Shown: positions 5,650-37,456 of the stretch, in pieces
How positions within the stretch are numbered: the first letter of the stretch is position 1
How the letters are laid out: each line of letters begins with the position of its first letter
Assembly: GCA_963768425.1 (NCBI GenBank)
Contig: CAVYHV010000029.1
Span: 34,013 to 98,012 of the forward strand
Direction: 5' to 3'
DNA from: Candidatus Bathyarchaeota archaeon
GTDB lineage: Archaea > Thermoproteota > Bathyarchaeia > Bathyarchaeales > Bathycorpusculaceae
Length of the DNA stretch: 64,000 bases
Made by a program: the position numbers and the translations under genes
Notes under the pieces: generated by a model
Database searches by the model: none
What the model was told of the DNA's origin: nothing
What the model saw: only the letters and a program-made list of their open reading frames with translations

Positions 5650-6197
5650 TTACTTGTTCGATGCTTGTTTATCTGCAGGAGATGTTTGCGAAACAGGTGC
5701 AGCCGCTTCAAGGCTTGGCTGGTCTGGAGTCAGTTGTTTTTGGGTTTTATCTGACAATATTTGTATTTTCTCTGCCATCGGATGAAGAAGATCTGGAGGG
5801 GGATAAGGAGTGTTCAGGTTGGACGATAGAATGTAGATTGAATTGAAAACGTGCTGGTAAATTGTGAAGAGTATCTGAGGGATCTTTGTTTTGGGGTTTA
5901 CTTCAAGTTTTTTCTTTATGTCATCAGGTTTACCAACTAAAGTTACAGTACCCGCAATATTGTATTTGACAACATTTGGTTTAGTTGAGATCGCCAAACT
6001 AAATGAAAGTGTTACTTCATTCGTACCTTTTTTCTGTTCTTCCAGCTTTGCGTTGACGTCAAAAAACAACTCGTCTTTTGAGAGGTACTCCCCAGTTCGT
6101 TCAGCTTGTAGACTAGTGAGCTTTATTGAAACGATGACCCCTGAAACAGAATACTGTGGATTTACGTCTGATTCCTCTCTTACATCATTCTCGTCAT
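5650..6197 (-). CDS. Hypothetical protein, possibly SecB-like alpha/beta fold; true start likely near 6197 (single indel)
   Basis: Frame is open 43 codons upstream of the listed TTG; ATG at 6197 is one base off frame; alternating beta-strand pattern then helix and PYPPP motif. Confidence 0.55.
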
Positions 6198-6248
6198 TTT
6201 AGTATTTAACTTTTGTATCTCAAACAAGATTTAACATTAATGCGGGTT

Positions 6249-6827
6249 TTATTCTATTGGACTAAAGAATGCTGGCACGGAAAGCTCCCCCATGAAATTG
6301 AAGGTTTCGTTGCCCTTAGCATTCGGTTTCGGTTTTAATACTATTTTTTTCGGAATGTCATCTTCAAAGTAAACAACGTAATTAACAGTTGTTCCCAGTC
6401 CGAGCCGAGCGAGCTGTTGCACGGATGATTTGAATTTCTCGTTTTCTTGAATTTTCATGTTGATTTTTTCGATTGCTTCAAACAAGATTTCGGTTTGTCC
6501 TTGTTCAGTAAATGAGATGTCAATGTCGCCTGATTGAACCCAACATGAGGCTTCTTCTTTGCCTTTTCCTTTTTTAGCTCCATTCTTTCCTTTATCCGTT
6601 TTTTCAGGTGGTTTCTTTGATTGACTACGCATGTTTTTTTGCAGGGCTGCTGATTTTTGGAACCATTCGTCATTTTTGTGTGATACTTCGAAGTCTCGCA
6701 ATAGTGTCCCAAGCCATTGGCTATAATCTTCGAATGTTGCCCGGTATTGACTCGTTTGATTTGCTATGAATTCAGTCAATTCTTTTAGTGAGGTGAAAGT
6801 TTGAATTTCTGTTCCCATTTTTTCCAC
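6249..6827 (-). CDS. Hypothetical protein (N-terminal helical part, Lys-rich linker)
   Basis: 192-aa ORF, normal composition. Confidence 0.65.
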   Translation of the reverse strand: MEKMGTEIQTFTSLKELTEFIANQTSQYRATFEDYSQWLGTLLRDFEVSHKNDEWFQKSAALQKNMRSQSKKPPEKTDKGKNGAKKGKGKEEASCWVQSGDIDISFTEQGQTEILFEAIEKINMKIQENEKFKSSVQQLARLGLGTTVNYVVYFEDDIPKKIVLKPKPNAKGNETFNFMGELSVPAFFSPIE

Positions 6828-7116
6828 TCAGTTTTCATAATTTTTATCAAACTGTTCCATTCAGACAATTACAAGGTCTAATTTTTGGGATAATAGGATT
6901 TGTCCATCGCAGAAATTACATACTCTTTTTAAAGTCGACATCTTGCAAATCTGCTTTCATTTTTAGGCGATTGATTGAAGATGGCTCGGCTGGCTTCATG
7001 ACTATTTTCAGGAAAAAGCAATAATTGTTTTTATCCAAAATCTTTTATGTTATTGAACAGCATAGAAAGACTAACAGTGAAAGCTGGGCAAAAGTTAGTT
7101 GTGAGGTTGCTGAGGT

Positions 7117-7770
7117 TTGGGCGAAGATATGGACATTTTGATTCAGAGAGAGGAAGCCAAGCTTTTGCCTTTTTGCTCACGAATGGAAGAACTCAAAACA
7201 GAATTTATTATGGAAACGGCGGATTTTGCTTCTGAATGGTTCAAGAAAACTGCGAACGAATACGTTACCAAATATCCTGAAGTTACTTTAACCATGAGTG
7301 AAGAAAAACTAGCCAATATGAAAACTAAAGTTAATGAATTAATTGGAAACTCGGAAAAAATAGTGAAAAGTGAGTTAGAAAATCCCGATTTATGGTGGCA
7401 CCAAAAGCCGCATCTTCATGACTCAATCGAGCAATACACGCAAGTAGCAGACAAATACCCTGAAATCCTTGATCGGGCCGTAAGACATGCGCTAGGAAAT
7501 CTGGGTACCGTTTTGGAGGAATTTAGATTCCACGTTATCGCGAGCGGAAACACAGGTTCATATCAAGAATTCTGGTTTGAACATCCGCAGGATAGTGACA
7601 AAACAATTCCAATCTATCCCCATCTTCTTGAATGGACAGAAGAGATGCAAGACACAATCAGAAAATACAATGCCCAATTCGTTCAAGCAATGAAGTTGTA
7701 TGATGAAATACAAAAGCTCAAAGACCAGAAGAAGAGGCTACAAGCCATGGCGCGCTGGGAATCCGTTTAG
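7117..7770 (+). CDS. Hypothetical coiled-coil protein
   Basis: 217-aa helical ORF. Confidence 0.65.
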   Translation: MGEDMDILIQREEAKLLPFCSRMEELKTEFIMETADFASEWFKKTANEYVTKYPEVTLTMSEEKLANMKTKVNELIGNSEKIVKSELENPDLWWHQKPHLHDSIEQYTQVADKYPEILDRAVRHALGNLGTVLEEFRFHVIASGNTGSYQEFWFEHPQDSDKTIPIYPHLLEWTEEMQDTIRKYNAQFVQAMKLYDEIQKLKDQKKRLQAMARWESV

Positions 7771-7967
7771 AACAACTATTCCTTAAACTTGAAATATTCT
7801 AAACTTAATTTCTTAAGTTAAAACGGTTCTTTGACAAATTTCATTAAACTTTGCAGCTCCAGTATTATTTGGAACAAAAAATACCCGAGAACCTGTTGGA
7901 AGGAGGCAACAAAAATCAAGGATATCAAAAACCTTTTTTTAGAAAGAAAGATATCGTCTGTTTATCG

Positions 7968-9641
7968 TCAGCTTCCCCTGAACTTTAAGAAATAAACTAC
8001 CCCGATAGCAGCTTCAGCACCAATTAGCCCGGCAATAATAAACAGAGAATATCTAACGTAAAATGACGGTTCAGTCACGGTTATAAATAACTCTTGGCTG
8101 TCACACCTTAAGGACGCCTGAGTTTCAGGCGAGGTTGCGAAAACAGCCCAAGGTCCACAAGAGTTAGGTCGGAAACTTGCGTCAAAAGTTCCATTGTCAC
8201 TCACCGGGCATTCTAATGTTTTGGTGAAGTTAGAGCTGCTGAATTGCACGTCAACCACGGAACCATTATAGTCTGGAGCAACCATAGAATCAGTGTTGTT
8301 CAGAGTTAGAACTCCTTTAATTGTTATGTTTTCGCCAAGGAGTATTCTATTTTCAACTGCGTTGATGTCAAGAGTCAACGGTTCCTTCACCGTGTAGTTG
8401 CCCGATGAATAAAATCCATTTTCTATTACATCTGTCGCATTAATTTTGTATTGAACGAGCGTTCCGGCGGTTTGACCCGGTATTGTTGCTATGCATGTTT
8501 GGTTACTGACGTCCATATTCAAAGTTTTAGTGTTGTTCCAATTGTCGGTCGTGTATGATAGTTGAGCTGTCTCCAAATCTGTATTGTTCGTCGTATAAGT
8601 AAGCGGGGTTGGCTCCTCAGGATAAACTCTGCTTGGAATAGTTAATGGTATCAAGGAAGAATTTTCGAAATTAGTCTTTAACATAAACTGAATATTGCCT
8701 GAACCTACCTCTCCGATAAATACCACATGATAGAGATTTGCTCCAATATTTGGCGAAGTGTAATTTAGAGACATTGATTGACCCATGTATTCGCAGCTTG
8801 CGTAGGCCACGCCTCGGTAGCTATTTGGTTCAAAATTGTAACCACCAACTGAACCAGTTAGATTGCCATACAAACCGGGTTCCCACGCTAGTGGAAAATT
8901 GTCTAAGCTCGGCGATGCAGCATTATTCATTAAGTAAAGCCTAGCTTCATACATGTCTAACGTGTTTGGAACTTTTACGTACAATTGAACATATGAGGCG
9001 TTGGTTTCGAATTCATATGCCCAATTTGTGTAAAAATTAGCGACACCACCGTTTGTGCCCTCGACAATACTATTATACCACTGGTCGCAAAGGAGATTTT
9101 CAATGATCATGAAAGTGGCTTCTTGAGCGCCCTCGCTGTCTACTGGATTGTTGTTTATAACAAATGTGTAGTTGCCTGACTGTGTTGGAGTAAAAAGTGC
9201 GGTATTAACGGTTGTGCCTAAGTGTTCTGGAAGACCTGCTGATTGAGTATGTGAACTCTCCAAGTTTCCTTGGGGGTCATAAACGTAGACGTTGTAGTCT
9301 GTCATTGCTGAGGTTGACGTGTTTATGTACGCTCCATAAAAGTAAATGTGGTAGTTATGGCCTTCCAATAATGGGCATATAATGGTCCAGTTTTCGCCGA
9401 TCGCTATTTGTGAACTCTTAATTAACACTGGGAACATTGGTTTTTCAATGTAAGTGCAGTTTCCTTCAGCGTTATTGAAATTATGTACGTAATTTGTGTA
9501 TTCTGACGTAGTGGTTAATTGAACAGTTGAGGCGGGGGTCTGGGAGGTAGACGCTTGAGCCATGAATAATGGACTGACAACTAAGACAACGATTGTAATT
9601 AGTGATAGGATTTTAGCTTGTCGCTTGATTTTCAGATGCAT
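7968..9641 (-). CDS. Secreted, C-terminally membrane-anchored surface protein (beta-sandwich repeats)
   Basis: Signal peptide, many NxS/T sequons, Ig-like C-terminal region, TM helix + KFRGS tail. Confidence 0.75.
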   Translation of the reverse strand: MHLKIKRQAKILSLITIVVLVVSPLFMAQASTSQTPASTVQLTTTSEYTNYVHNFNNAEGNCTYIEKPMFPVLIKSSQIAIGENWTIICPLLEGHNYHIYFYGAYINTSTSAMTDYNVYVYDPQGNLESSHTQSAGLPEHLGTTVNTALFTPTQSGNYTFVINNNPVDSEGAQEATFMIIENLLCDQWYNSIVEGTNGGVANFYTNWAYEFETNASYVQLYVKVPNTLDMYEARLYLMNNAASPSLDNFPLAWEPGLYGNLTGSVGGYNFEPNSYRGVAYASCEYMGQSMSLNYTSPNIGANLYHVVFIGEVGSGNIQFMLKTNFENSSLIPLTIPSRVYPEEPTPLTYTTNNTDLETAQLSYTTDNWNNTKTLNMDVSNQTCIATIPGQTAGTLVQYKINATDVIENGFYSSGNYTVKEPLTLDINAVENRILLGENITIKGVLTLNNTDSMVAPDYNGSVVDVQFSSSNFTKTLECPVSDNGTFDASFRPNSCGPWAVFATSPETQASLRCDSQELFITVTEPSFYVRYSLFIIAGLIGAEAAIGVVYFLKFRGS

Positions 9642-10009
9642 GGCTGAATCAGATTACAAGCGTTATGTATTATGGATGTTTGACATATTGCTTATGAATG
9701 CTAAATCAATATTTGCAAGATTAGGCTTGATTCAAGATTTATTAACTGGAAACTTTGTTTTCAGGCGTTTTCTGGTTTGCTAGCTTTTTGTCTGTCTGGA
9801 TTGTTTCAGACAGTTTATTTTAAATTCATATCTTGAAGTTGGCTTTAACTTTCATAGTTGCAAGCATTATGTTGTGTATTGAATCTCGCTACAGAAGACA
9901 CTTATATGAAAAACGTTCATGCTAATCTAACGGGAAGTTCACATGATGAAAATAACAAACTTCCAAACAATTCAACAAAGGATGTTCTGATATGGGAGGT
10001 GAAAATATA

Positions 10010-10688
10010 ATGAATTACAATTCTTTCCGCAGGATTTTAAGAAACAAGTACGCTCTTAGCACTGTCGTAACGACGCTCATTATCCTAGTAATTTCAGTGC
10101 TGCTGGCTAGCGTAGTCACTTACTTCGCTATTAACGTAGTTAGCACGAGGGTTCAAGAAGAAAGTCTTTCGCTAAGCGATGCTCACATATGGCTCAACCC
10201 ATTGGCTGCCGCAGGGGCTGCCACCTATTCTCAGGCTTCACTTAAGGTCATTAATACTGGTGGTAGAGATGTGGTCATCACTAAGATAGCTGTCAGAGGT
10301 CAAGACAACGCATGGACTTCTTGGGCAACCGGAACACCCCCAACTGATAGTCAATTCTTGGTCTATTCAATAACTAACTCGCCCATACAAACTGACATGT
10401 ACTTCCAGCCTACTATGGCAATTCCAGTAGCTGATCCAGCCACCGTCGCTACACCTGTGACACAGCAACTTGCTCTAACTGGTGGCGCAGCAACTGCTCC
10501 AGCCGGATTCGCATTCAATTATGCTACAACTGACTTAGTGCTCAAATCAGGCTATACACTTGCTAGTCTACATAATGAATCCTGACAGCATCACCATAAA
10601 CGACATCGGCTTAACCGTTAGCATAACGCTCTACACAGCGCAGGCAATGTACTATCAAGAATGCAACGTCCAAGCCTACACAGCATAA
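10010..10688 (+). CDS. Major type IV pilin/archaellin-like protein 1 (extra T at ~10560)
   Basis: RNKYA|LSTVVTTLIILVISVLLASVV class III-like leader, INTGG motif; conserved tail ..QAMYYQECNVQAYTA in shifted frame; cactTgcta vs cactgcta in paralogue. Confidence 0.8.
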
Positions 10689-11045
10689 TAAGATCCTAAA
10701 AGCCATATCGAGGTTAAACCAATAATTCAAAACGTGACCGCTGAGTCGGGTTTCATAACAACCCCTCTTATTTGCGGGACTTATTTTTTTTACATTTCAT
10801 CAAGCAGCGACTTGTCTGTCAGGATTGGCTCGCACAGTTTATTATAAATACTTATTTTAGAACATGGTTTGTTTTTCATATTTCTAAGAAGGATGGGTTG
10901 TATTAAATCTCACTACAGAAGACATTTATAAACAAAGCACCTAACAAAAGACCTAACAAAAGTTACTCGGAGTGGGGAATATTGAACAAAAACCAACAAC
11001 AAATCGAACACACAAACGCATCCCTAAACAAGGGAGGTGACTAAT

Positions 11046-11716
11046 TTGAATTGCATTTCATTCCATAAACTCTTGAAAAACAAGTACGCTCTTAGTACTG
11101 TCGTAACGACGCTCATTATCCTAGTAATTTCCGTGCTGCTGGCTAGCGTAGTCACTTATTTCGCCATAAACGTAGTTAGCACGAGGGTTCAAGAAGAAAG
11201 TCTTTCGCTAAGCGATGCTCACATATGGCTCAACCCATTGGCTGCCGCAGGGCTGCCACCTATTCTCAGGCTTCACTTAAGGTCATTAATACTGGTGGTA
11301 GAGATGTGGTCATCACTAAGATAGCTGTCAGAGGTCAAGACAACGCATGGACTTCATGGGCAACGGGTCCTTTAGATAGTCAATTCTTGGTCTATTCAAT
11401 AACTAATCAGCCTATACAAACTGACATGTACTTCCAGCCTACTATGGCAATTCCAGTAGCTGATCCAGCCACAGCCGTTACACCCGCGACACAACAGTTC
11501 CTTCTGACAGGTGGCACGGCAACTGGCAATAACGGATTTGTCTTCAATTATGCTACAACTGACTTAGTTCTCAAATCAGGCTATACACTGCTAGTTTACA
11601 TAATGAATCCTGACAGCATCACTATAAACGACATCGGCTTAACCGTTAGCATAACGCTCTACACAGCGCAGGCAATGTACTATCAAGAATGCAACGTCCA
11701 AGCCTACACAGCATAA
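11046..11716 (+). CDS. Major pilin-like protein 2 (missing G at ~11250)
   Basis: Near-identical to pilin 1; gcagggct vs gcaggggct; GGAGGTGA RBS before TTG 11046. Confidence 0.8.
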
Positions 11717-11861
11717 TTATCCAATTAAAGTCCAAGATGCTAACACAGGGTTATTTTTAAAACCCTAAATTTTGTTTCTTTTTTGTTTATGTGTTTTTTT
11801 TGTGACGCACAAGTTTACTTATCTTGATTTTGCTGAATAGTTTTTCAAAGTGAAATGTAAA

Positions 11862-12431
11862 ATGAGAATGAAGAATATACTGAAGAATCGTTTGGCTTTA
11901 AGTACAGTCGTTACTACTTTGATTATTCTAGTGGTTTCGGTGCTGCTCGCAGGTGTCGTTACTTACTTTGCTATCAACGTTACTAGCACTCGAGTTCAAG
12001 AAGAAAGCCTACAACTAACAAAACTACACGTATGGTATGATTCAGCTGCTCCCAGAGGTCAAGCTGCATTTCTGATAATGAACACTGGAGGCCGAGATGT
12101 CGTAATAAATAAAATTACGATACGTGGACAACAAGCAACCTGGGGTAACGTCTATTATGGCGTATCGGCAACTTACACAGTCAGCGCCGACCTGGCATAC
12201 ATAAATTCCGCCACTCCCGCATCTGCCCTCGCAGTGGATGGCACTACAGGTCACAACGTCGCATTAACAGCAGCTACAGGAGACATAACTTTGCAATCAG
12301 GCGCTAGCATGGTTGTTTACATCGCAGGCCTAGACAGCGTAACTATTAACGACATAGGCTTAACTGTTGGAATTACCGTGTTCACTTCGCAAGCGATGTA
12401 CTATCAAGAAGCCAACGTACAAGCAGCATGA
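11862..12431 (+). CDS. Major pilin-like protein 3 (intact)
   Basis: KNRLA|LSTVVTTLIILVVSVLLAGVV, MNTGGRDVVI, conserved C-terminus. Confidence 0.85.
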   Translation: MRMKNILKNRLALSTVVTTLIILVVSVLLAGVVTYFAINVTSTRVQEESLQLTKLHVWYDSAAPRGQAAFLIMNTGGRDVVINKITIRGQQATWGNVYYGVSATYTVSADLAYINSATPASALAVDGTTGHNVALTAATGDITLQSGASMVVYIAGLDSVTINDIGLTVGITVFTSQAMYYQEANVQAA

Positions 12432-12507: not shown

Positions 12508-12819
12508 AAACTTAGATCTTTGATTACAAGAAATATTGCTACAATTAGCGTTAGTTTTTAAAATTTAATTTGCCAAAGCGAAAGCAAGTTTCAAGTTCAA
12601 GGAAACTAGAGCAGCATTTTTCTACAAAAGAATCAAAGAATGCGCTGAGCGCAGCCACAATTCTACTTCAGCTTTTTCTTTCTATCAATCAAAACCCGCT
12701 GGTAGCTAACAAGTGAATAGATACAAAAATCGGGGTTCCCTTTTTGCAATGTGTTTTTTTTGTTACGCACAAGTTTACTTATCCAAAGTTTGCTGTTTGT
12801 TTTTTTAGTGAAATGTAAA

Positions 12820-13418
12820 ATGAGAATGAAGAATATACTGAAGAATCGTTTGGCTTTAAGTACGGTCGTTACTACGCTGATTATTCTAGTGGTTTCGGTG
12901 CTGCTCGCAGGTGTCGTTACTTACTTTGCTATCAACGTTACCAGCACAAGGGTTCAAGAGGAAAGCTTATCGTTGGAAATGCTACACGTTTGGTGTCCGC
13001 AGTCTGCAAGCGCGACAACAGGTCAATATCCAGCTGAAGCAGCGTTTGTGATCATTAATACTGGCGGTCGAGACGTAGTTATAAACAAGATCACGGTTCG
13101 AGGACAAGAAGCACCCTGGGCTCAAGTCTATTCGGCAGTAGGCTCAGTAACATCAGACCTTACATACATAGCAGGAACAGATGCGACAACCAACAATGCA
13201 GTTGCAATTTTGACAACTGCCGATACTATTAATAACCGGTGATGACAATGGCTGTTGCTTCAGGTGATATTACGTTGAAATCAGGTGATAGCATGGTTGT
13301 TTACGTTGTAGGTCCAGATAGCATCACTATTAACGACATAGGCTTGACTGTTGGAATAACGGTGTTCACTTCGCAAGCGATGTACTATCAAGAAGCCAAC
13401 GTCCAAGCATACAGCTAA
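12820..13418 (+). CDS. Major pilin-like protein 4 (-1 indel at ~13237)
   Basis: N-terminus identical to pilin 3; after TGA 13240 the shifted frame gives MTMAVASGDITLKSG...QAMYYQEANVQAYS*. Confidence 0.8.
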
Positions 13419-13653
13419 ATAGCGTAGATTAAGTAATCTAAAAGTAATCTACCCCCACAACCCCCCAATCTTTCTTTTTTCTTTTCAATATAGCAAACTT
13501 TTGAGCAAACCTTCAATTTTTGTGCTTACTATAATCTTGATTTCTAATATGAAAATAATGTGTAGATTGTTAATACACACAAACCGCTTAATCGGTTTCC
13601 CATAGTTTTTATAGTAAATGCATGCTTACGAGGAGATGTAACTGACGGCAGAT

Positions 13654-14481
13654 TTGCATAGTCGATTGTTCAGACGGTTTGTTCGTTCCAAGAAAGCGTT
13701 AGCTTTGCCAGTTACATTTCTAATACTGTTGGTATCTACACTTGGCATTATTTCAGTTACTTATTATTTTTCAATTGAAAGAATCAATTCACAAAGCGAG
13801 GCTCTCAAAGTTTCCACAGCTCAACAGGACTTTTTATCTCTGGATAATGTTATTCTTTCCACTTTAGGCCAGCCTGGTTCTTCAGCGACGTTTGACTTGG
13901 CGGACTCAGGTGGATTAATAAACGTCCAGCCAACTAACGACACTCTAACAATCGACGTTAATGACAACTCTACCATCGACGCAACTGTCTTTAACGCCTC
14001 AGTAGGGCAAGTTTCCTATGATCTTCCATTTTCAGGTTCAATCGAAACAGGTCTTTACTTGGAAGGTGATAGCCAAACAATAACCAACCAAAGTGGCTCG
14101 TCACCAAGTCAACTTTTCCTAACAAATGGTGTTCAGGGACCTGTGATCCAGTTGCGATATCGGCCGACTGTGACATATGCGACTGCTGGATTCGAAAATG
14201 ATCACGCTGTCACTGACATTCGCATCTATTTAGTCAACCTGAACTCTTCAGATCCAATTGCGCTGCAAGGTGCGCTTCCCTTACAAATCTCTTGCGCGAG
14301 CACACAATTAACAACTGAAACCTACCAAGTTTCCAATCAATTTGAAAACTTGGAGATATCTTCACAACTGAACGGTGCTCAGGGATCAATTTCTGTCCCC
14401 ATCCAAAGCGGTCCTCAAGGCTCAATAATCAACATAGAAACTGTCATTTCTAACATATCAATTGAGAGGTGGATCTCTTAA
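13654..14481 (+). CDS. Minor pilin-like protein
   Basis: RSKKA|LALPVTFLILLV class III-like leader, beta-rich body. Confidence 0.7.
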   Translation: MHSRLFRRFVRSKKALALPVTFLILLVSTLGIISVTYYFSIERINSQSEALKVSTAQQDFLSLDNVILSTLGQPGSSATFDLADSGGLINVQPTNDTLTIDVNDNSTIDATVFNASVGQVSYDLPFSGSIETGLYLEGDSQTITNQSGSSPSQLFLTNGVQGPVIQLRYRPTVTYATAGFENDHAVTDIRIYLVNLNSSDPIALQGALPLQISCASTQLTTETYQVSNQFENLEISSQLNGAQGSISVPIQSGPQGSIINIETVISNISIERWIS

Positions 14482-14925
14482 ATGGTATCGATTATTCCAA
14501 GCTACGTGTACTCGCTGTTTGCAGCCCTCATCGTCGGCACAATTCTAGTTTCAAGCTGCAGCCTTTCAATGGTAAACTTGAAAAATGAAGCAGGAAATCA
14601 ACAATTATCCAATGTTGATGAATATGTTGCAGCCCAAAGCCTGACTCTCATAGGCCAGACTATCCAAGACAACCAGAATACCACTCAATTTCTGGATCTT
14701 CCTTCGCAAATTGGAAACCAAATTTACTGGGTATGCTTAACGAACGACTCGTTTAGTGCGTCGGTTGAATCCGGCTTCGGAACAACGGCCTCCTTGAATC
14801 AACCACAATTATACATACCAGCCGAAATCTCTGCATCAGGCATTTTCGTTAGCAGTTGGGGTAGGCCTCTGCTGCAATGTTGCTACCAAAACCAAACGAT
14901 TACATTAACATTAACTAGTGAGTGA
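14482..14925 (+). CDS. Pilus-associated membrane-anchored protein
   Basis: N-terminal TM, LDLPSQIGNQIY motif typical of archaeal minor pilin-like proteins; operonic. Confidence 0.6.
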   Translation: MVSIIPSYVYSLFAALIVGTILVSSCSLSMVNLKNEAGNQQLSNVDEYVAAQSLTLIGQTIQDNQNTTQFLDLPSQIGNQIYWVCLTNDSFSASVESGFGTTASLNQPQLYIPAEISASGIFVSSWGRPLLQCCYQNQTITLTLTSE

Positions 14926-22681: not shown

Positions 22682-22737
22682 TTTGGGGTTCACCTTTCTC
22701 CATATTTTAGGTCTTGTCTCCTAATTCTAACCATTTA

Positions 22738-26287: not shown

Positions 26288-26408
26288 GGCAAATCAGTTG
26301 TTTCCTCTTTCGGCGAGTCACGAATACAAGAAAGCATGGTTTAGCACGCCCAGTAAAATTAGGAGCAATCCTAAGGTTGCCTATCAGCGACTGGAGTTAA
26401 CACCATGT

Positions 26409-27586: not shown

Positions 27587-27617
27587 ACGCAAAGAGAAGG
27601 TTGAGGCAGAAAAATAT

Positions 27618-28456
27618 TTGGTCGAGCAAGTCAAAACGGATTCTTTGCAGGACTTCTTAGATAAAATGGCTTTTCAAAAAGTTAAAAAAATGCTGTTTGA
27701 AAATGCCGGAGTAAACTGTTCAGGTTACAGAGATGAATATTTAAAGCGGCGTTTTGAAATCCGATTAAGAGCAACTGGCGCCAACTCATACGGCAGGTAC
27801 ATTACTTATTTAAGAAATAATCCGGAAGAATTCAAAAACTTACTTAATGATATGACGATTAACTTTACCATGTTTTTCAGAGATACTGATGTTTACACAT
27901 ATCTTGAAAAAGTGCTTCTTCCCAAGATCTTCAAGTTATCGAAGCCTACCCGAATTTGGAGTGCCGGCTGCGCTAGTGGGGAAGAGCCTTATTCCTTGGC
28001 CATTTTGGTTCATAAAGTCCTTGGGGAAAAAATATGTGATCATCCTGTAACAATTTTTGCTTCTGATATCGACAAAGATGCGCTATCAACTGCTGCAAAG
28101 GGCGAGTATTCCCAAAGGCAGCTAAGTAACCTGAGTAGGGACTTAGTGGACCGATTCTTTACAAAGAGGGAGAACTTTACAAAGTTCGCAATTCTGTGAG
28201 ACAAATCATTCATTTTCACGAGTTCGATTTAATGGCTCCTTCTGTGCACCTGAATCTAGATCTTATTTTATGCAGAAACGTAATGATCTATTTTTCAAAG
28301 GAAAGTCAACAACAAATCCACATGAGCTTCTATAAGGCTTTGAAATCTGACGGTTACTTTATTACTGGAAAATCAGAAATCTTGAGCGGTGAACCAGCGG
28401 CAAAATTTCTAGCGGTGGACCAACAAGTTAGAGTTTATCAAAAACCCAGCAAGTAA
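27618..28456 (+). CDS. cheR: CheR methyltransferase (-1 indel at ~28165)
   Basis: INFTMFFRD, RIWSAGCASGEEPYS, ASDID; DLILCRNVMIYF in next frame. Confidence 0.9.
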
Positions 28457-28608
28457 ATGAATCGTCAAAATACTTGCTTTCAAATATGTCTCTTTAAGGT
28501 CTGAGTGTCTGATTAAAGACACACTCTACCAAATTACCTAATTTGTCTCAGATTGTTGTATTAGATCTGAAATTCGAAGGTGCAGATTCGACCTTAGGTG
28601 AAAAGGCA

Positions 28609-30637
28609 ATGTCATTTGATAACGATCAATATAGGCAATTATTCATAGATGAGGCAAAAGAGCATTTAGATACAATAACTAAATCAATGTTGATTTTAGA
28701 AAAAGAACCCGAAAACCAAGAGGTTATTAACATGCTTTTTAGGGCAGCTCACACGTTAAAGGGTTCGTCAGGAATGATGGGCTTCAAAGACTTTCAAGAG
28801 CTCACTCATAACATGGAAGATATCTTTGATGACATGCGAAAGGGCAATCGACCCTCCTGTAATCTCATCACAGCTCTTCTGGAATGTTTAGATGCTTTAT
28901 CACAGCGACTTGAAAACATACAAAATAAAGTCGATGGCGACATTGAAGTTGAACAATTCAAAGATAAGTTGCAAAAGGCTAAGTCTCAATTGCAAATCTT
29001 GCAACCACAAAAGGAGAATGAAAGTAAGCAATCAGCGCTTGAAAATAATAGGCTTGATTTTAACGAAAACGAAAAAGAGTTAATCAGTAAGGCTGAAAAT
29101 GCAGGCGAACAATGTTTCATAATTAATTTCAAATTTGCAGACGATTGCAGTTTCAAGACTATTCGAGCAAGTATGGTTTTGGACAAGATTGCCGAAGTTG
29201 CGAGAATAGTGAAGTCTGTTCCAGCAAGTGAAGAATTTGACGAGCAGAAGCTCAGCCAGGGCTTTAAAATGGCTGTCACTAGGCAAGCTTGACGAAGAAA
29301 CAGTCGCAAAAAGCGCTAAGAGCGTTCTTGAGGTAGAGAGTGTAAGCATTTCAGCTTATAACACATTTGCTCCCCCTGTCAAGAAGACTCTTGATGGCCT
29401 TTTGGCTGAGAATAATTACGTCATAACTGTTGAAAATAAAAAAATTGTCAAGGTCCTTCAGGACCAGGCGGCTACTCAAACTGTTCGAGTAAAGTTTGAT
29501 CAGCTTGACAAATTGATGAATTGGGTAGGTGAACTTGTTATCAACAAAATCGCCCTTCTTCAGATAACCTCGGATAATCGAAACGACCAATTGAAGCATG
29601 TTACAGAAAACATTGATCGGTTAACCGCTGACTTGCAAGATCTCGTAATGGAAGTCCGAATGGTGCCCGTCAGTCAGGTATTCGACAGGTTTCCGCGTTT
29701 GGTTAGAGATCTTTCGTTAAAAAAAGGAAAGAAAATTGATTTGGTTATGGAGGGAAAGGACATTGAAGTTGACAGGACAGTATTGGATGAAATTGGTGAG
29801 CCGTTAATTCATTTGCTTCGAAACAGTGTTGACCATGGTGTGGAAACTCCAGAAGATAGAGTGAAAATAAACAAAAATGAAACTGGAACGATTAAGCTTT
29901 CGGCTCAGAGAAATGGCAATCAAGTAATTATAGAAATCCAAGATGATGGGGCTGGAATCGACCCTGAGAAACTAAAGGAGTCAGCTCTCAAGAAAGGTTT
30001 TGCGAGTCAAGCGGAACTGGAAAAAATGAATAAGGAACAGTTAATCAACCTCATTTTCCTCCCTGGATTTTCAACTGCAAAAGTGGTTACTGAAACAAGC
30101 GGCAGAGGCGTCGGAATGGATGTTGTAAAGACGAAAATCTCCGCGTTAGCCGGTACCGTTCATATTGAAAGCCAAGTTGGCCAAGGAACTAAAACAACAA
30201 TTAAACTTCCTATCACACTTGCAATTATTCAAGCGATTCTTGTTAAGGATACTACTCAGACATTTGCTATTCCTACAAGCCAAGTTTCAGAAATTGTTAG
30301 AGTCAATAAAACCGATGTTAAGTCGCTTGGAAAAACTAACGCCATAATAGTCCGAGATCGCGTAATTCCCATGGTTCATCTGCATCAGCTTTTGGGTCTT
30401 CCAGATTCAAACGAAGATGAGCTTGAACTTCTCATAACTTATCTTGGAGACGAAAATACGAAAATGGGTATTGTGGTTGATTCAGTCCTGCGGCAACAAG
30501 ACATCCTGGTAAAGTCATTGAACGAAACGTTTGCTGGAGTCAAAGGCATAAGCGGAGCAACAATCCTAGGTGATGGTCAAGTTGTGTTAGTTTTAGATGT
30601 GGGGCAATTGGTGAATAAAGGATACAAAAGAGCCTAA
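28609..30637 (+). CDS. cheA: CheA histidine kinase (+1 indel at ~29282)
   Basis: Hpt FRAAHTLKG, P2, HLLRNSVDHG, DDGAGID, SGRGVGMDVV, C-terminal CheW-like P5. Confidence 0.93.
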
Positions 30638-30780: not shown

Positions 30781-30820
30781 ATTCTGAATGCGAACTTGCA
30801 ATTCATAATTTATTTATTTA
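30781..30820 (+). promoter_or_regulatory. Bipartite upstream motif + TATA
   Basis: ATTCTGAAT-gcgaacttgcaa-TTCATAA-ttta-TTTATTTA. Confidence 0.6.
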
Positions 30821-30849
30821 TGAGAGACTACCTTTCCAAAGGTATCACA

Positions 30850-31827
30850 ATGGTCACGGTGCTTTTAGCTGACGATTCAGTGTACATGAGAAATTTGTTA
30901 AAGAGTCTTCTTTCTGAATCTGAGTACGAGGTTGTAGCTGAAGCTTCAAATGGAGATGAAGCTATCAGTCTCTATGAGAAAGTTAGACCTGATATTGTTT
31001 TGATGGATATAGTTATGGATTCTGGGCAAGTTGCGAGAAGTGGACTTGATGCTCTCGAAAAAATAGTTTCAATTGATTCTAAAGCTAAAGTGATAATATG
31101 CAGCGGCCTGGATCAGCAGTCACTGATTAATAAGTCAATGGAATTAGGTGCCAAAGCATTTGTCACTAAACCGATTGAACCTGAGAAACTATTTGAAACT
31201 TTAGCAACGTGTTCTGACTTGCGCATACTCAGTGAAATGGGGAATATTGGTGCAGGTCGGGCTGCAACGGTTCTGTCCAAGTTGGCCAAACAACCTATAC
31301 AAATTGAATTGCCTAAACTTGAAACTGGTGCACCGCACCTTATAACTAGGCTTTACGGTGCGCCGGATAGACTGGTTACTGCTGTTCATATGCGTCTTCA
31401 AACAAAACCTGATTGTGATGCTTTACTTGTTTTTGAGCCTACCGAAGCCATTAAAATCGCTGATATAATGACAGAAAAATTAAGTCATGCCCCTCCTGAA
31501 ATGGAAGAGTCGGCAGTGAAAGAAATGGGATCTAATATGATATGTGCTTTTTTCAGCGCGATTGCTGACTTCTCTGGTTTGACATTTGTTCCTTCTGAAC
31601 CATGTGTTGTGACTGATTCGTTTGAATCCATAATAGATGTTTTTCTTGCTAAACAAGCGATGACGGCCAAAGCAGCTTTGGTTTTTCAAACTCTATTCAA
31701 AAGAGAGCATAGTTCCATAAACGGATTCTTTCTTATAATTCCAAGTCCTGATTTTCAAAAACAACTTATTGAAGCGGGAAAGAGATGGCTCAACCCAGAT
31801 GACATCCCATTAATGCCACAACAATGA
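30850..31827 (+). CDS. CheY-CheC fusion protein
   Basis: REC domain (ADDS, DIVLMDIVM, KP) fused to CheC (EMGNIGAGRAATVLS; SAVKEMGSNM). Confidence 0.88.
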   Translation: MVTVLLADDSVYMRNLLKSLLSESEYEVVAEASNGDEAISLYEKVRPDIVLMDIVMDSGQVARSGLDALEKIVSIDSKAKVIICSGLDQQSLINKSMELGAKAFVTKPIEPEKLFETLATCSDLRILSEMGNIGAGRAATVLSKLAKQPIQIELPKLETGAPHLITRLYGAPDRLVTAVHMRLQTKPDCDALLVFEPTEAIKIADIMTEKLSHAPPEMEESAVKEMGSNMICAFFSAIADFSGLTFVPSEPCVVTDSFESIIDVFLAKQAMTAKAALVFQTLFKREHSSINGFFLIIPSPDFQKQLIEAGKRWLNPDDIPLMPQQ

Positions 31828-32224: not shown

Positions 32225-32569
32225 GTGGAACATAGTGAAGTAAAATCTGAGAACGCTCGAAACCTTATTCTCAGCTACAACAATACAGTGTACTATGTTA
32301 ATAGTGTCAACGTTCAAATCAAAGACGGGATCGACAAGCTCAAAGCTATTTTTCATGCCAAACGCGCAGGCGATGAAGCGCCTCAGGATTTAGACATTGA
32401 AATAAGCCAAAGCATCTATGACATACTATTGGAGTACGCGAGATTGGATAAGTTTGACTTAATCATGGTATTGCAAATAGAAGGGTCCAAAACACAATGG
32501 TGCATCATGAGTGAAGACTGGCTAAAGAACCAATCTGATAAAGGTGGAAGAGACGAATACATAGTTTGA
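32225..32569 (+). CDS. Hypothetical protein in che cluster
   Basis: 114-aa ORF with RBS-like sequence and upstream ATTCGGAAT. Confidence 0.6.
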   Translation: MEHSEVKSENARNLILSYNNTVYYVNSVNVQIKDGIDKLKAIFHAKRAGDEAPQDLDIEISQSIYDILLEYARLDKFDLIMVLQIEGSKTQWCIMSEDWLKNQSDKGGRDEYIV

Positions 32570-32694: not shown

Positions 32695-33207
32695 ATGGCA
32701 AATGTAAACAATCAATCAGGCTTGACAGAAGAAATCCAGATGCTAACATTCACACTTGATAACGTTTTATATGGCGTCAATGTACATCAGGTTCGTGAAG
32801 TAAAAAACTTTGAAGGAGTCACTCCTGTCCCATATGCCCCTGACTATGTTAAGGGAGTTACGAATCTGCGAGGCGAAGTAATCCCCGTAATAGATCTTCG
32901 GAAACGTTTTGGATTAATCGGGTCAAACGACGAAAACACAAACATCATGATCATAGTTCAAGATAAGCACCCTGTTGGTATAATGGTTGATTCAGTTATG
33001 GAGGTTCTTACCCTTCCAAAAAAGGACATCGAAGCGAACCCTGAAAGCTTAATTGTAGACAAATCCGAAGCGGTCTTGGGCGTAGCTAAGCACGACAAAG
33101 AACTCATTATCCTGCTAGATTTCTTGAAAGTGGCGTCAAAAAACTCGGGAGATATGAAAGATTCTAGAGGTTTTCAAATTCAAACACAGAACCAACCAAA
33201 ACCGTAA
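32695..33207 (+). CDS. cheW: CheW coupling protein
   Basis: TPVPYAPDYVKGVTNLRGEVIPVIDLRKRF, GIMVDSVMEV. Confidence 0.95.
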   Translation: MANVNNQSGLTEEIQMLTFTLDNVLYGVNVHQVREVKNFEGVTPVPYAPDYVKGVTNLRGEVIPVIDLRKRFGLIGSNDENTNIMIIVQDKHPVGIMVDSVMEVLTLPKKDIEANPESLIVDKSEAVLGVAKHDKELIILLDFLKVASKNSGDMKDSRGFQIQTQNQPKP

Positions 33208-33259
33208 AGCAGACATCATTTATCTCTTCGCTTTTTCATGCTTCTAATTTGTGGTTTTT

Positions 33260-34273
33260 ATGAGGCAAATCAAGCTACTTATTGTTGACGATTCTTTGTT
33301 TATGCAGAAGATTCTTTCAGATTTATTGCAATCAGACGAACAGATATTAGTTGTAGGAACAGCAAGGGATGGAGAAGAAGCCCTCTCGAAAATTGGTATT
33401 TTGCATCCTGATGTTGTGACAATGGACATAGAAATGCCGCGAATGGATGGGCTGACTGCTGTTCAAAGGATAATGGAGACTGATCCAGTTCCTGTTGTAA
33501 TAATTAGTGCTTTAACACAAAGTGAAGCCCGGCTTACTTTGAAGGCATTGGAATATGGCGCCATTGACTTCGTATCTAAACCATCAGGAAAAGTATCGCT
33601 TAACATGGAGGTAGTTAGAGATCAGATCATTTCAAAAATCAAGTATGCTGCTTTCGCCAATATTACAAGCACTAAGACCAAAGTCCATCAACCTTTGAGT
33701 GCGTCAAACAAAAGCTGCGACAGGATAATATCAATAGCTTCTTCAACAGGTGGTCCACCTGCACTCACTCAGATTTTAAAGTCACTTCCTGCGGACATAC
33801 CGCCTATCTTGATTGTTCAACATATGCCTAAAGGTATGACGAAGATCTTCGCAGAGGGGCTTAGTGAAAAATGCAAATTTGACGTAAAAGAAGCTGAAGA
33901 AGGAGACAAGATTCAGGAAAATTTAGCGTTGGTTGCTCCTGGAGGTTTTCATATGGTCGTAACTAAAGAGAAAAGAATTGGTTTAACAGTAGGCCCTCCT
34001 GTTAATTATGTGCGTCCTTCTGCTGATGTTACCATGATTTCTATGGCCGAAAGATATGGATTTAAAAATATAGGCGTTGTTTTGACTGGCATAGGTATAG
34101 ATGGAGCTAAGGGAATTAAATCCATCAAAGAAAAGGGTGGATTTACTATAGCTCAAGATGAAGAGACGAGCGTTGTTTTTGGTATGCCTAAAGCTGCCGC
34201 TCAAACGGGCTGCGTTGATTTAGTTGCTCCTTTGGGGTTGATTCCGAAGGAGATACTGAAAGCATGCAACTAA
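33260..34273 (+). CDS. cheB: CheB methylesterase (REC + catalytic)
   Basis: DIEMPRMDG; ASSTGGP, IVQHMP, LTGIGIDGA. Confidence 0.95.
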   Translation: MRQIKLLIVDDSLFMQKILSDLLQSDEQILVVGTARDGEEALSKIGILHPDVVTMDIEMPRMDGLTAVQRIMETDPVPVVIISALTQSEARLTLKALEYGAIDFVSKPSGKVSLNMEVVRDQIISKIKYAAFANITSTKTKVHQPLSASNKSCDRIISIASSTGGPPALTQILKSLPADIPPILIVQHMPKGMTKIFAEGLSEKCKFDVKEAEEGDKIQENLALVAPGGFHMVVTKEKRIGLTVGPPVNYVRPSADVTMISMAERYGFKNIGVVLTGIGIDGAKGIKSIKEKGGFTIAQDEETSVVFGMPKAAAQTGCVDLVAPLGLIPKEILKACN

Positions 34274-34323: not shown

Positions 34324-34357
34324 CTAAAAATGCACAACAAGGTGTAAATTAACTTTA

Positions 34358-35866
34358 ATGGAAAGTATCAAAATGACCGATGAAACCCGTGAAAAACGTA
34401 ATCCAGATTTGGAAAAACAGTTAGAGAAACTTGAAAGAGAAAACAAACGCTTGCAAGGGGAGAACAAAGACCTGAGAAAAGAAATTATTGAGATACTTCA
34501 AGATGCCATAGCAGGTGCCGAAAAAATTAGTGCAAGTACAGATGAAACGATTCAAAATGCTGCCAAAGCTGCAGATCTTGCGTATCAAGCAGAGCAATCA
34601 GCCAGAAAAGTTGCCGAGTTGTCATTGGGCGCAAGTGATATCGTTAGTAAAGTGAGTGCTAACGCAAAGAGCGTTGGAGAAGTCGCTAATAAAGTAGCTG
34701 CAAACGCGGAAGGTGCTACCAAATCAACTTCAAAAGTAGTTGAGATGGGGAAACAAGCAGCAAACGTTTCAAACCAAATGGCAATCGGTATGCAACAAGT
34801 AAGTAGTGCTTCTCAGCAGGTTTCCACGGGTGCACAAAAACTAGCTGATTTATCGCAAAACGCTGCCAGAAGCACTGAAGCATTGAAGAAAGTTATGGAT
34901 GACGCAGGAATGATTGCAAAGGAAGCTTCAGCCGTTACTGAGGATGCTTTGAAGAAGTCAAGAGACGCTAATGATCAAGGTCAGAAAGGACTTGTAGCGA
35001 TAGAGAATATTAAAAATAATATTACCCGCGTTTCAGATGCTGTCACATCGATGGTTAATTCCGTCGAACAAGTTGGCCAAATGGCTAGTTCCGTTTCTGA
35101 TATTGCTAGTCAAACAAACATGTTAGCATTAAATGCTGCAATTGAAGCCGCTAGAGCGGGTGAAGCAGGAAGAGGTTTCGCTGTAGTTGCTGACGCAGTG
35201 AAAGGCTTAGCCGGGCAATCAAAAGTGGCGGCTGGATCTGCTATCAATCTAGTAAAAGGAATTAAAGAAGCAGGCATTCAGACGAGCAATATCACACAGC
35301 AGTCGCAAGTAGGCGCAACTGAAGGTGCAAACGTAGTTTCAGGGGCCATAAAAGAATCTGAAGGCATAGCGAAAATAATGGGCGAAATGACAAGTAAAGT
35401 CAACAATCTAGCAAACGGTGTTGATCGAGGACTTGATGCAATAGCTACGGTTGTCAAAACAATTGAAGAAGTTGCAAGCATCGCGGAAGAAAGTTCATCT
35501 GCGTCCGAAGAAGCCTCTTCAGCAATTGAAGAGCAAACAGCTGCTTCAGAGGAAATGGCTGCAATAGCTAAAGATGTTTCTAGCACTGCGGAGCAAGTTG
35601 CAAAGATAACTGAAAACGTCGTTGGCGAGGCTAAAGAAATGGCCGAACTCGCTTTGAGTGTGGTAGATGACGCTGCAAAAGTTGAGAGCTCAGCCAAAGA
35701 AATATTGTCCGAAGTTGAAATTGTAGGAAGGAATTCAAATACCGTGGTAACAGAAGCAACAAGGATGGCAGAAATAACAGAAAAAATTAAAAATGATCTT
35801 CAAGAACTTATAGAACACCGCACAAAGGTACTCAACACTTACCTTGAAAAAGATGCAAGCAACTAA
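34358..35866 (+). CDS. Soluble methyl-accepting chemotaxis protein, no TM or sensor domain
   Basis: [30 protein letters not shown] hairpin tip; all-heptad flanks. Confidence 0.92.
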
Positions 35867-36005
35867 TTTCTTTTCTTTTTTCAAATAAGGCTTTGAACAA
35901 TTTTGATAATGAAGTTTTGAAACTCTGGGCGCCAAAATTTTGTGTATAAACTTTGAGACATACAAGCACTTTTCTGTTTTAAGAGCTATCATCATTTGAC
36001 CTGAA

Positions 36006-36533
36006 ATGACTCAAGAAACAGTAAAGCAAGAGCCTGCACAAATCTCCTCTTCACCCGAACTCAAACAAGTTGAAAAGAAAAAACAAGTTTCAGTCCAGGA
36101 ACTTGTTGAGTCTTTGAAAAGCACGGCAGATGACATAGGTCAAATTAGCGAACTTAGCTCAGAAGAAAAGATATTGGTTACCCAATTTTTCTCCTCCCTT
36201 CTTAAACTGATGACGCCTATTGCCCCTTCAATTGAAGTGAGCCAATTGTCACTTCCTGCTCAACTTGGTGACGTGGTTCAAGCGCACATTGCACCAACAG
36301 GGCATTTGATGTTACAGTTTGAAGATGGTCATGTTGAACTCAAAGATTTAAGCGAAGCAAAGAACCGGGATCTCATGACGGTTGTTGTTGGTGATATTGT
36401 GCCAAAATTCAAGAGTTTAACAAGCGCTCAGAAACGGAAGCTAGAGAACCGGATTAAAATGCTTTCGAGTGTAACGAAGGAAATTCAGAAGAGTTCTGAT
36501 TCTCTTTCAGCAGCCCTGCCGGATGGTCAATAA
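36006..36533 (+). CDS. Hypothetical protein
   Basis: 175-aa ORF, helical termini around a small beta region. Confidence 0.65.
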   Translation: MTQETVKQEPAQISSSPELKQVEKKKQVSVQELVESLKSTADDIGQISELSSEEKILVTQFFSSLLKLMTPIAPSIEVSQLSLPAQLGDVVQAHIAPTGHLMLQFEDGHVELKDLSEAKNRDLMTVVVGDIVPKFKSLTSAQKRKLENRIKMLSSVTKEIQKSSDSLSAALPDGQ

Positions 36534-36757
36534 TTTTTTCTTTAGGCGTTAAACAAATACCCATTTAATTTGGATCATTGGACAGTGGAAGATAAGTCTA
36601 AGTTACGCAATATTTGACTTTGGCGTCTTTCTGGTTATATTACAAGATTTTGAACGTTATTTTGTGTTAAATCAATTTAGAATGATTAGTTTTTTTAAAA
36701 AGCGTAACGCTATTTGTTTACTGCTTAAACTATCTCGAAAAAAATACATTTATTAAT

Positions 36758-37084
36758 TTAGAAATAGCCAATCATTTTCATCGCAATAACAGCTATTGAA
36801 ATTGCTGCGACAAGAAATATTAGTTTTTTTGATTTAAACAATGAGTTTGATGTTGCTTCTCCTTCTTGGAATTCGTATTCTTTTATTTCTTTTGTGTTAG
36901 AATTTATCTGCACTTTCGCGGTTAACCTTTGATACATCATTTCAACCACGTATAATTCCCCATCAAGTGAAACCTTCATCGGCAACCAGCTTCCTTTGTA
37001 CCCTAACCGTTTCAAGAAGTCAACTGTCATAGCCGTTGCATTTTCGGCATCAAATCTTGAAACTTCTGTTGTGACTGCAGACAT
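36758..37084 (-). CDS. Small C-terminally anchored protein, PepSY-like pattern
   Basis: Helix, Y.VE..., KVQINSNTKEI, then TM helix. Confidence 0.55.
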   Translation of the reverse strand: MSAVTTEVSRFDAENATAMTVDFLKRLGYKGSWLPMKVSLDGELYVVEMMYQRLTAKVQINSNTKEIKEYEFQEGEATSNSLFKSKKLIFLVAAISIAVIAMKMIGYF

Positions 37085-37204
37085 GAACCTTCGAAGAGGA
37101 ATTGGTTCTGGAAGGTATTAGGATTTATGAATCGTGAAACCATATTTCCGATAAACGTGAAGTAGCAAGTAAGAAAATGCGTTAAGGATGCAGAAAAAAA
37201 TAGT

Positions 37205-37456
37205 TTACGGCGTCGGTATCCCTGGGTTCAGCTGCTGAGTTTGATTAAATAATTGAGTAGTTTGATCCGAGAGTTGACGTGTAAGATTCTCCATTTGGCC
37301 GTAATACGGATTAGTTGCATTATTGGCTGTCTGTTGTGCTATGGTTACACTGTAATTGATAACGATGCAACAAAGCACGACAGCTGCAGTTACCAACATT
37401 AAAGTCGCTACTGAAGTTTGCAATGATTCCTTCTCCCAAACAAACCACTGCCGCAA
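37205..37456 (-). CDS. Small pilin-like protein (possible 5' indel, ATG near 37487)
   Basis: EKES|LQTSVATLMLVTAAVVLCCIVINYSV parallels the major-pilin N-terminus. Confidence 0.5.
   Translation of the reverse strand: MRQWFVWEKESLQTSVATLMLVTAAVVLCCIVINYSVTIAQQTANNATNPYYGQMENLTRQLSDQTTQLFNQTQQLNPGIPTP

Follow-up and report, generated by a model that had tools for sequence, protein, structure and literature searches.

What does a complete-looking set of chemosensory genes do inside a locus that encodes a type IV filament, and which filament is it? The question is raised by a block of about 32 kb (positions 5650 to 37456) in a 64-kb stretch of Candidatus Bathyarchaeota DNA (contig CAVYHV010000029.1, positions 34,013 to 98,012; hereafter the window), in which pilin-like genes, one secretion ATPase gene and one platform protein gene lie together with a chemosensory (che) gene cluster. 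The block is read here as an Aap/'clade 4'-like type IV pilus locus of Bathyarchaeia with a recurrently nested F1-like chemosensory system steering it, a reading held with confidence evenly divided between acceptance and doubt.

Protein families were assigned with Pfam in 71 open reading frames (ORFs) of the window (43 + 28, E ≤ 0.01) and with NCBIfam in 34 ORFs, and Pfam was also run on 58 flank ORFs without a window counterpart from eight related loci. Related loci were collected by scanning an alignment of the platform protein against one genome per species, which returned 104 relatives, of which the best 80 were kept; the occurrence of each gene was counted by tblastn of the window proteins against these 80 loci, and the counts are lower bounds because contig ends truncate many loci. 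All 80 loci belong to metagenome-assembled genomes (MAGs) of Bathyarchaeia and encode platform proteins 56 to 99% identical to that of the window; two of the contigs are filed under other names, as Nanoarchaeia and Limnocylindrales, likely through annotation or binning artefacts. The window itself is archaeal, with genes for GatD/E, RIO kinases, an LSM protein, anaerobic ribonucleotide reductase and an IS200-type transposase, and close relatives of its proteins, where labelled, are from Bathyarchaeia or Bathyarchaeota. The ORF listing, Pfam and NCBIfam placed the genes of the block at the positions given in Table 1, in agreement with the gene content that an earlier note had read from the sequence; the four major and at least five minor pilin-like genes claimed there were recovered as four paralogous pilins and six minor-pilin-like genes.

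An ATPase, a platform protein and pilins with class III signals occur together in one locus, which is the gene set of an archaeal type IV pilus. The core of the locus, consisting of the pilins, m275, m147, the ATPase, the platform protein, m347, m125 and m282, was found in 67 to 80 of the 80 loci, with pilin homologues in 67 to 69. The pilin N terminus, a short basic leader followed by ALSTVVTTLIILV, is kept across 41 aligned homologues. The AlphaFold model of pilin 3 (mean pLDDT confidence 90.5) shares its fold with solved archaeal pili: the best filament match in the PDB was the S. solfataricus pilus 6W8X (E 5.3e-5, TM score 0.40/0.54), with further filament matches to P. arsenaticum 6W8U, the S. 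acidocaldarius Aap pilus 8Q30, and S. islandicus 6NAV and 8TIB, all five at E values from 5e-5 to 7e-4 with modest TM scores of 0.35 to 0.54 and sequence identity of 14 to 19%. No archaellum was among the matches listed in this fold search, and no window pilin matched a flagellin or archaellin family in Pfam; with a match to Pilin_N and pilus folds ranking best, the subunit is not of the archaellin type. The last pilin gene (13060-13430, compared with positions 1-370 of L001, a locus from the same species as the window) has a strongly diverged middle, exposed part between near-identical ends, despite 99% identity of the two platform proteins, which hints that the pilin head is under diversifying selection or undergoes recombination.

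The secretion ATPase scored 345.6 bits on the NCBIfam FlaI model, against a cut-off of 550, and 233.8 bits on BasE; among PDB sequences its match to 2OAP reached 336 bits and that to S. acidocaldarius FlaI 229 bits, with the FlaI alignment starting only at residue 132. The nearest ATPase representatives scanned, 56 proteins that form the subset of 450 to 700 amino acids (aa) of 150 returned, all had FlaI as their best NCBIfam model with 288 to 456 bits, and none reached the cut-off, which may itself leave out some true FlaI proteins. The FlaI label is generic, since the same model is also best for all 56 non-passing representatives, and the FlaI best hit was rejected as evidence for an archaellum. 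A FastTree phylogeny of 61 rows, comprising the 56 unlabelled cluster representatives and five Bathyarchaeia sequences, placed the Bathyarchaeia clade, along with P0241 as its one close relative (53% identity), inside a group of 23 rows with support 99; the 18 other rows of this group all scored below 400 on the FlaI model, and the 17 rows with a score of 400 or more all fell outside it. The rows with which the ATPase groups score low on the FlaI model and relatively high on BasE. By scores and branching, the ATPase is judged not to be a FlaI equivalog, and the ATPase and pilin results appear to fit a TACK 'clade 4' pilus, the rows of the ATPase tree carrying no subclade labels. The platform protein scored 95.8 bits on BasF, 93.6 on UpsF and 70.5 on ArlJ, each far under the cut-off of its model. 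One database source names this ATPase and platform protein 'flagellar protein FlaI/FlaJ', likely an annotation artefact, and such automatic labels are not to be taken as evidence for archaella in Bathyarchaeia.

No KaiC/FlaH, archaeal flagellin, FlaC/D/E or CheF family was found by Pfam in the 71 window ORFs, by NCBIfam in the 34 window ORFs, or by Pfam in the 58 flank ORFs, which matched glycosyltransferases, radical-SAM enzymes and housekeeping genes. Thus neither ArlH/FlaH nor CheF is recognisable in the window or in the flanks of the eight related loci, and the fold matches listed for u114, a small protein of the che cluster, show no CheF entry. A relaxed Pfam scan of 88 homologues (eight from each of 11 families without assignment) yielded DUF7289 in two of the eight m275 homologues, below the cut-off, and DUF7266 in two of the eight m147 homologues, one of them above the cut-off (28.8 versus 27.6 bits); m147 is the gene directly before the ATPase gene in related loci. 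The two proteins in the position equivalent to ArlF/ArlG, m275 and m147, thus match only these two families, and weakly. DUF7288 was weakly matched by one of the eight m125 homologues and DUF7261 was touched, also weakly, by one of the eight homologues of one small-protein family; m347 matched no family in Pfam or in the relaxed scan of its homologues, and the flagellin family appeared in none of the small-protein homologues. No sequence match to ArlX/ArlCDE was obtained in the window or in the homologue scans; these ring and switch proteins are reported to be highly divergent (PMC4858521). By Pfam, the window contains no AapX-type Fe-S protein and no prepilin peptidase PibD.

The claim of the earlier note that FlaH, FlaF/G, FlaCDE/X and CheF are not recognisable was thus borne out by Pfam and NCBIfam for the window and by Pfam for the flanks of the eight related loci, and its description of the block as pilus-like rather than a recognisable archaellum agrees with the Pilin_N match, the pilus folds and an ATPase off the FlaI-like side of the tree. 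An ATPase inside the FlaI clade with FlaH nearby, which the note had named as evidence against a non-canonical filament, was not what was found: the ATPase lies below the FlaI cut-off and on the non-FlaI-like side of the tree, and no FlaH is present in the window. These results also bear on the idea that the filament is a divergent rotary motor, in which the soluble proteins u139, u192, u217 and u175 would replace ArlH and ArlX/ArlCDE and a new adaptor would receive CheY. The machine is unusually conserved (ATPase identity 77 to 100% and platform identity 75 to 99%, each over the best 120 database clusters), the four lineage-specific soluble proteins are retained in the locus, and chemotaxis control in archaea is, according to PMC4858521, known for the archaellum only, with no evidence for other type IV pili. 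The motor idea nevertheless appears very improbable: the pilin, in its fold and in its Pilin_N match, looks like that of an adhesive or twitching pilus, the secretion ATPase lies off the FlaI-like side of the tree, no ArlH-type ATPase accompanies it in the window or flanks, and nothing ties the soluble proteins to a ring structure, u139 and u192 having no Pfam, NCBIfam or PDB sequence match. For u139, u192, u217 and u175, no relatives were detectable outside the class by profile, relaxed Pfam and atlas searches. The PDB profile matches of u175 (E 0.39), u139 (E 0.14) and u192 (E 0.0024, a designed protein) were dismissed as not meaningful, the atlas search with u175 gave only Bathyarchaeota hypothetical clusters without Pfam assignment, and u217 gave only sub-threshold matches to Glyco_hydro_2 beta-sandwich families (E 5e-4 for the window protein, and in five of eight homologues).

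The che cluster encodes CheA with domains P1 to P5, CheW, CheY, CheB, CheR, CheC, CheD and an MCP, and the chemosensory system is classed as F1-like by this gene content. CheA has one Hpt domain, P2, dimerisation, HATPase and CheW domains and no receiver, unlike the ChpA-like CheA of the bacterial Tfp class with its several Hpt domains and fused receiver. All che genes besides cheA and cheR are intact, and the acidic pair, D53, S85 and K107 of CheY are kept in eight of eight sequences. In CheY and in the receiver of the receiver-CheC fusion (REC-CheC; receiver at 30796-31200), a short insertion follows the Asp that takes up the phosphate (DIIMPPGPKAKDG and DIVMDSGQVARSG); receivers usually have the shorter DxxMPxMDG at this site.

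The che operon lies inside the pilus locus rather than next to it. In the window it is flanked on one side by MoxR and on the other by u175, u108 and u83, which are pilus-locus genes elsewhere, and since u175 directly follows MoxR in most loci, the operon sits between two genes that otherwise adjoin. The block is not a chance assembly, because homologues of the genes at its two ends (5650-6069 and 37205-37456) are found within this locus in other Bathyarchaeia as well. Eight of the 80 loci have che genes at most 10 kb from the platform gene, in five arrangements. In L001 the che genes follow MoxR. In L041 they follow TrmB, and the receiver-CheC gene closes the pilus operon at its 3' end. In L047 they are placed between TrmB and a MoxR-VWA pair of inverted orientation, and in L059, L063 and L067 they come behind u175. 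In L077 and L078, where the order is cheA-u114-cheY-cheD-cheC-cheC, they diverge from the pilin genes. The eight loci fall in five separately supported parts of a FastTree of ATPase and platform sequences (77 rows), and complete chromosomes among the related loci are CP170178.1, which carries the nested arrangement, OY970286.1, OY969706.1 and OY970176.1. Remnants of che genes were found at matching positions in L009 (17122-17352, a 76-aa ORF of the CheR C terminus) and in L079, the sister of L078 (about 5176-5328, a fragment of the CheA Hpt domain); to judge from their position, they mark che genes that were lost from within the pilus locus. A 'CheA' match in L010 proved to be a PAS histidine kinase and was left out of the count.

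Identity of CheY to the window protein (91, 85, 83, 83, 80, 72 and 71%) broadly tracks that of the platform protein (75, 76, 69, 69, 69, 59 and 57%), which fits joint vertical descent. The pattern can be read as an old association of che and pilus genes with repeated rearrangement and loss, and we infer that random placement would bring an operon into this 20-kb span of a 2.3- to 3.0-Mb chromosome less than 1% of the time. The linkage of pilus and che genes proposed in the earlier note thus stands as far as its recurrence is concerned (eight loci and two remnants) and fails as a general rule, since 72 of the 80 related loci have no che genes nearby. The wider claim of a chemosensory filament system gains from the pilus character and the nesting, and is weakened by a linkage confined to a minority of loci and by a che marker that lies apparently more than 10 kb away in at least two genomes.

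Several observations weigh against a che system that steers this pilus. No che genes are present in the 10-kb flanks of those 72 loci, some of which end at contig ends and others of which clearly run into housekeeping genes. The u114 homologues P0465 and P0423 are apparently on the contigs of L024 and L038, which equal theirs in length (2,683,460 and 389,512 bases) and where no che genes occur within 10 kb of the pilus locus, and the che cluster can apparently sit elsewhere on the same replicon. By its gene content, the cluster would belong to the class that controls archaella elsewhere among archaea, where CheC/CheD gene sets and a five-domain CheA serve archaella (PMC13747009). The archaellum and cheF negatives cover the window and related flanks, and both may be encoded elsewhere in the genome. 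In PMC10477458, the one cultivated Bathyarchaeia member is reported to be non-motile, and no appendages were observed on it. The system may also be decaying rather than working, with cheA and cheR frameshifted and cheA split in the unrelated locus L077 as well.

The 72 loci, the displaced marker and the archaella-type gene set favour the alternative that the che system steers a canonical archaellum encoded elsewhere through CheF, its proximity to the pilus reflecting a shared neighbourhood or regulation of surface and behaviour genes. This explanation is unlikely, though it deserves serious weight: neither the 64-kb window nor the 58 flank ORFs yielded an archaellum or CheF family, the nesting recurs in five arrangements spread over five parts of the tree and che remnants occupy matching sites, and a 2026 census of archaeal type IV filaments, in the sections available, names Bathyarchaeota only for Aap-like systems and subsystem 4A and chemotaxis only with archaella (PMC13705601).

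The frameshifts give rise to a further alternative, namely that the che operon in this genome is a decaying, functionless relic. Pilin 2, pilin 4, cheR and cheA are each broken by a one-base frameshift, which the earlier note had not mentioned; CheR is intact in L041 and L047, with 278 to 282 aa. Loss of che genes from this position did occur in relatives, as the remnants in L009 and L079 indicate. An Elp3-like radical-SAM/GNAT housekeeping gene of the window is split too (49619-50767 and 50811-51233), bringing the total to five split genes in 64 kb, and the pilin 2 break lies in a G run (GGG, compared with GGGG in the near-identical pilin 1). Because a housekeeping gene is affected and one break falls in a G run, assembly indels are a likely cause; the breaks look like homopolymer errors of the assembly, and decay or slippage could also account for them. 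With this pattern, the remaining che genes intact and the catalytic residues of CheY kept, a relic is given the least credence of the explanations considered here.

In archaea, chemotaxis is so far known to act on the archaellum alone, by way of ArlCDE and of CheF, an adaptor with two PH-like domains and a CheY-binding domain at the C terminus. The pilus-steering reading requires a link from CheY to the pilus machine, and u114 is a candidate for this adaptor. It was seen only beside che genes, in the window, L077 and L078, where in the last two it lies between cheA and cheY. The u114 family comprises 108 database clusters with 57 to 98% identity, nameless or labelled 'hypothetical', and those with a taxonomic label are from Bathyarchaeia. 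Its model (pLDDT 79.1) consists of a small beta-rich domain and one long helix and gave no match at E ≤ 0.001 in a Foldseek search against the PDB. An atlas search with u114 returned scores below 0.9 only, to viral hypothetical clusters, and provided no lead. A complex prediction of CheY with u114 scored 0.00 (mark 0.32) and, run without controls, counts neither for nor against binding.

We infer that the target of CheY is this pilus machine and that the signal would reach it as follows. An MCP array would control CheA, which would phosphorylate CheY, CheB and the receiver-CheC protein. Phospho-CheY would act at the cytoplasmic face of the pilus machine, not at an archaellar switch, with the ATPase, the platform protein or the conserved soluble proteins as target, possibly via u114. 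Pilus assembly or use would be biased, leading to directed surface movement or regulated attachment. It is tentatively proposed, at somewhat less than even confidence, that Bathyarchaeia steer an Aap-like pilus by an archaella-type CheA-CheY pathway without CheF, via u114, the receiver-CheC protein and the four soluble proteins.

The output of the che system could also be something other than the pilus motor, that is, expression of pilins or surface proteins, or attachment, controlled through receiver-CheC, TrmB or the VWA/MoxR pair. TrmB and the VWA/MoxR pair hold a conserved place between the pilus operon and the che operon, the receiver-CheC gene ends the pilus operon in L041, and the single MCP of the cluster is apparently soluble. 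This possibility is rather improbable, since by Pfam none of the receivers in the cluster carries a fused DNA-binding output domain, and a full adaptation set of CheB, CheR, CheC and CheD is typical of fast behavioural control. A search by eye for a motif common to the pilin and cheY upstream regions found palindromes beside TATA-like boxes, none of them shared.

Among known systems, the Aap pilus and the adhesive pili of Sulfolobales and Pyrobaculum are the closest in kind to the pilus read from this locus: they share pilins with a class III signal, an N-terminal helix and a beta-sandwich head, and the Aap-type pili have one ATPase and one platform protein without ArlH. The differences are the low pilin identity and modest TM scores given above, the five to six minor-pilin-like, two surface and four soluble proteins that the locus has in addition, and the lack of an AapX-type protein. 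To our knowledge, no chemotaxis genes occur beside Aap loci. The Aap pilus is reported to drive twitching (PMC13705601). According to Makarova et al. 2016 (PMC4858521), thaumarchaeal pilus loci of subclade 4A have a 'strongly linked' pair of VWA and GvpN/MoxR-like genes and also carry extra surface or adhesin-like components; the locus resembles them by gene content, the VWA and MoxR pair being present here and in 43 to 44 of the 80 loci. The euryarchaeal archaellum shares the ATPase and platform superfamilies and a CheA/W/Y/B/R/C/D set beside filament genes, and differs in that ArlH, ArlF/G, ArlCDE/X, archaellin and CheF are not detectable in the window or flanks and the pilin is not archaellin-like.

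Bacteria steer type IV pili by CheA-CheY pathways in Pseudomonas (Pil-Chp), Synechocystis (Tax) and Myxococcus (Frz), which serve as an analogy of working only. Unlike in these systems, CheA here has neither an extra Hpt domain nor a fused receiver, the che set includes CheC and CheD, and the pilus machine, of archaeal type, lacks a separate retraction ATPase. No paper was found on a linkage, in archaea, between chemosensory genes and a type IV filament other than the archaellum, although supplementary tables may classify these loci. The main text of the 2026 paper on the F1 archaellum does not mention Bathyarchaeia (PMC13747009), and the words motility, pili, archaellum and chemotaxis are absent from the paper on the complete Bathy-6 MAG, the chromosome of which carries the L063 arrangement.

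Table 1. Genes of the block at positions 5650-37456 of the window, with occurrence of homologues in the 80 related loci
Feature	Coordinates	Strand	Matches and properties	Loci with homologue
u139, soluble	5650-6069	-	invariant YPPPDLL-type motif	22/80, always inside pilus locus
u192, soluble	6249-6827	-	adjoins u139 or u175	26/80
u217, soluble	7117-7770	+		11/80
surf557, surface protein	7968-9641	-	557 aa; signal-like N-terminal segment, C-terminal membrane anchor; no Pfam match	34/80, upstream of pilin genes
major pilin 1	9992-10585	+	197 aa, intact; class-III-signal-like N terminus; weak UpsA match; in pilin alignment	
major pilin 2	11037-11716	+	split by one-base frameshift; Pilin_N E 0.0013 on N-terminal piece	
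major pilin 3	11850-12431	+	193 aa, intact; Pilin_N 27.7 bits (cut-off 25.2)	
major pilin 4	12751-13418	+	frameshift in variable middle region	
m275, minor-pilin-like	13654-14481	+	N terminus KKA/LALPVTFLILLV	75/80
m147, small	14482-14925	+	N-terminal hydrophobic helix	76/80
secretion ATPase, VirB11/FlaI/PilB superfamily	14922-16508	+	T2SSE 116 bits; median identity 81.5%	79/80
platform protein, T2SSF/TadC/FlaJ superfamily	16511-18025	+	T2SSF 67.7 bits	80/80
m347	18041-19084	+	N-terminal hydrophobic helix; 3' of platform gene	80/80
m125, small	19132-19509	+	homologues about 140 aa	78/80
m282, minor-pilin-like	19437-20285	+	N terminus KSG/QVIIITALLVAL	79/80
surf447, repeat-rich surface protein	20353-21696	+	447 aa; C-terminal anchor; weak Delta-60 repeat	58/80
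TrmB-family transcription regulator	21800-22693	-	TrmB helix-turn-helix (HTH) 55.1 bits	66/80, same position
VWA-domain protein	22864-24582	-	VWA_2 31.5 bits	44/80, always with MoxR
MoxR/CbbQ/GvpN-type AAA ATPase	24600-25625	-	AAA_5 + CbbQ_C	43/80
cheY	25919-26287	+	Response_reg 95.8 bits; CheY_Halo 124.9 bits	
cheD	26262-26915	+	Pfam, NCBIfam	
cheC	26912-27586	+	Pfam, NCBIfam	
cheR	27549-28456	+	two frames: 27549-28199 (CheR_N + CheR), 28196-28456 (CheR)	
cheA	28543-30637	+	two frames: Hpt-P2 / dimerisation-HATPase-CheW	
receiver-CheC fusion (REC-CheC)	30796-31827	+	Response_reg 85.5 bits + CheC; CheC_Thtogales 90.3 bits	
u114	32225-32569	+	114 aa; in che cluster; Bathyarchaeia-only	
cheW	32695-33207	+	Pfam, NCBIfam	
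cheB	33251-34273	+	Pfam, NCBIfam	
MCP	34358-35866	+	no membrane segment visible; sole MCP of cluster	
u175, soluble	36006-36533	+	directly after MoxR in most related loci	32/80
u108 and u83	36758-37456	-	u108 with C-terminal anchor; u83 (37205-37456) with pilin-like N terminus	11/80 and 8/80

The extended locus is most conserved in its MoxR/CbbQ-type ATPase gene, with a median identity of 90% (42 loci) compared with 81.5% for the secretion ATPase. Upstream of the pilin genes, homologues of u108 and u83 adjoin u139/u192. Some related loci carry, immediately before the pilin genes, a radical-SAM gene along with several glycosyltransferase genes; no such radical-SAM gene is present in the window. 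The radical-SAM protein is of the SPASM type in L047 (4997-6124) and L002 (4983-6110) and has a B12-binding domain in L024 (1636-3099); it could be an enzyme that modifies pilins or a component similar to AapX. Outside the block, two paralogous HTH(ArsR-like)-RDD membrane regulators (45882-46601 and 58907-59653) are each located near an ABC-2 type transporter pair (39807-41464 and 59700-61375), and an IS200/IS605-type Y1 transposase gene (62206-62601) lies close to the window end. No RNA genes were found by tRNA and Rfam scans of the window.

Bathyarchaeia are a globally abundant class dominated by uncultured members and among the most abundant archaea of anoxic sediments and soils. For this class, the locus is a good candidate for the first chemotaxis-steered archaeal pilus and offers a concrete, testable case for pilus-based taxis in archaea, in which che genes were kept in a pilus locus through several rearrangements. 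If the reading is true, it would be the first known case in archaea of tactic movement on surfaces or of attachment under chemical control, and would bring with it a new form of signal-to-motor coupling.

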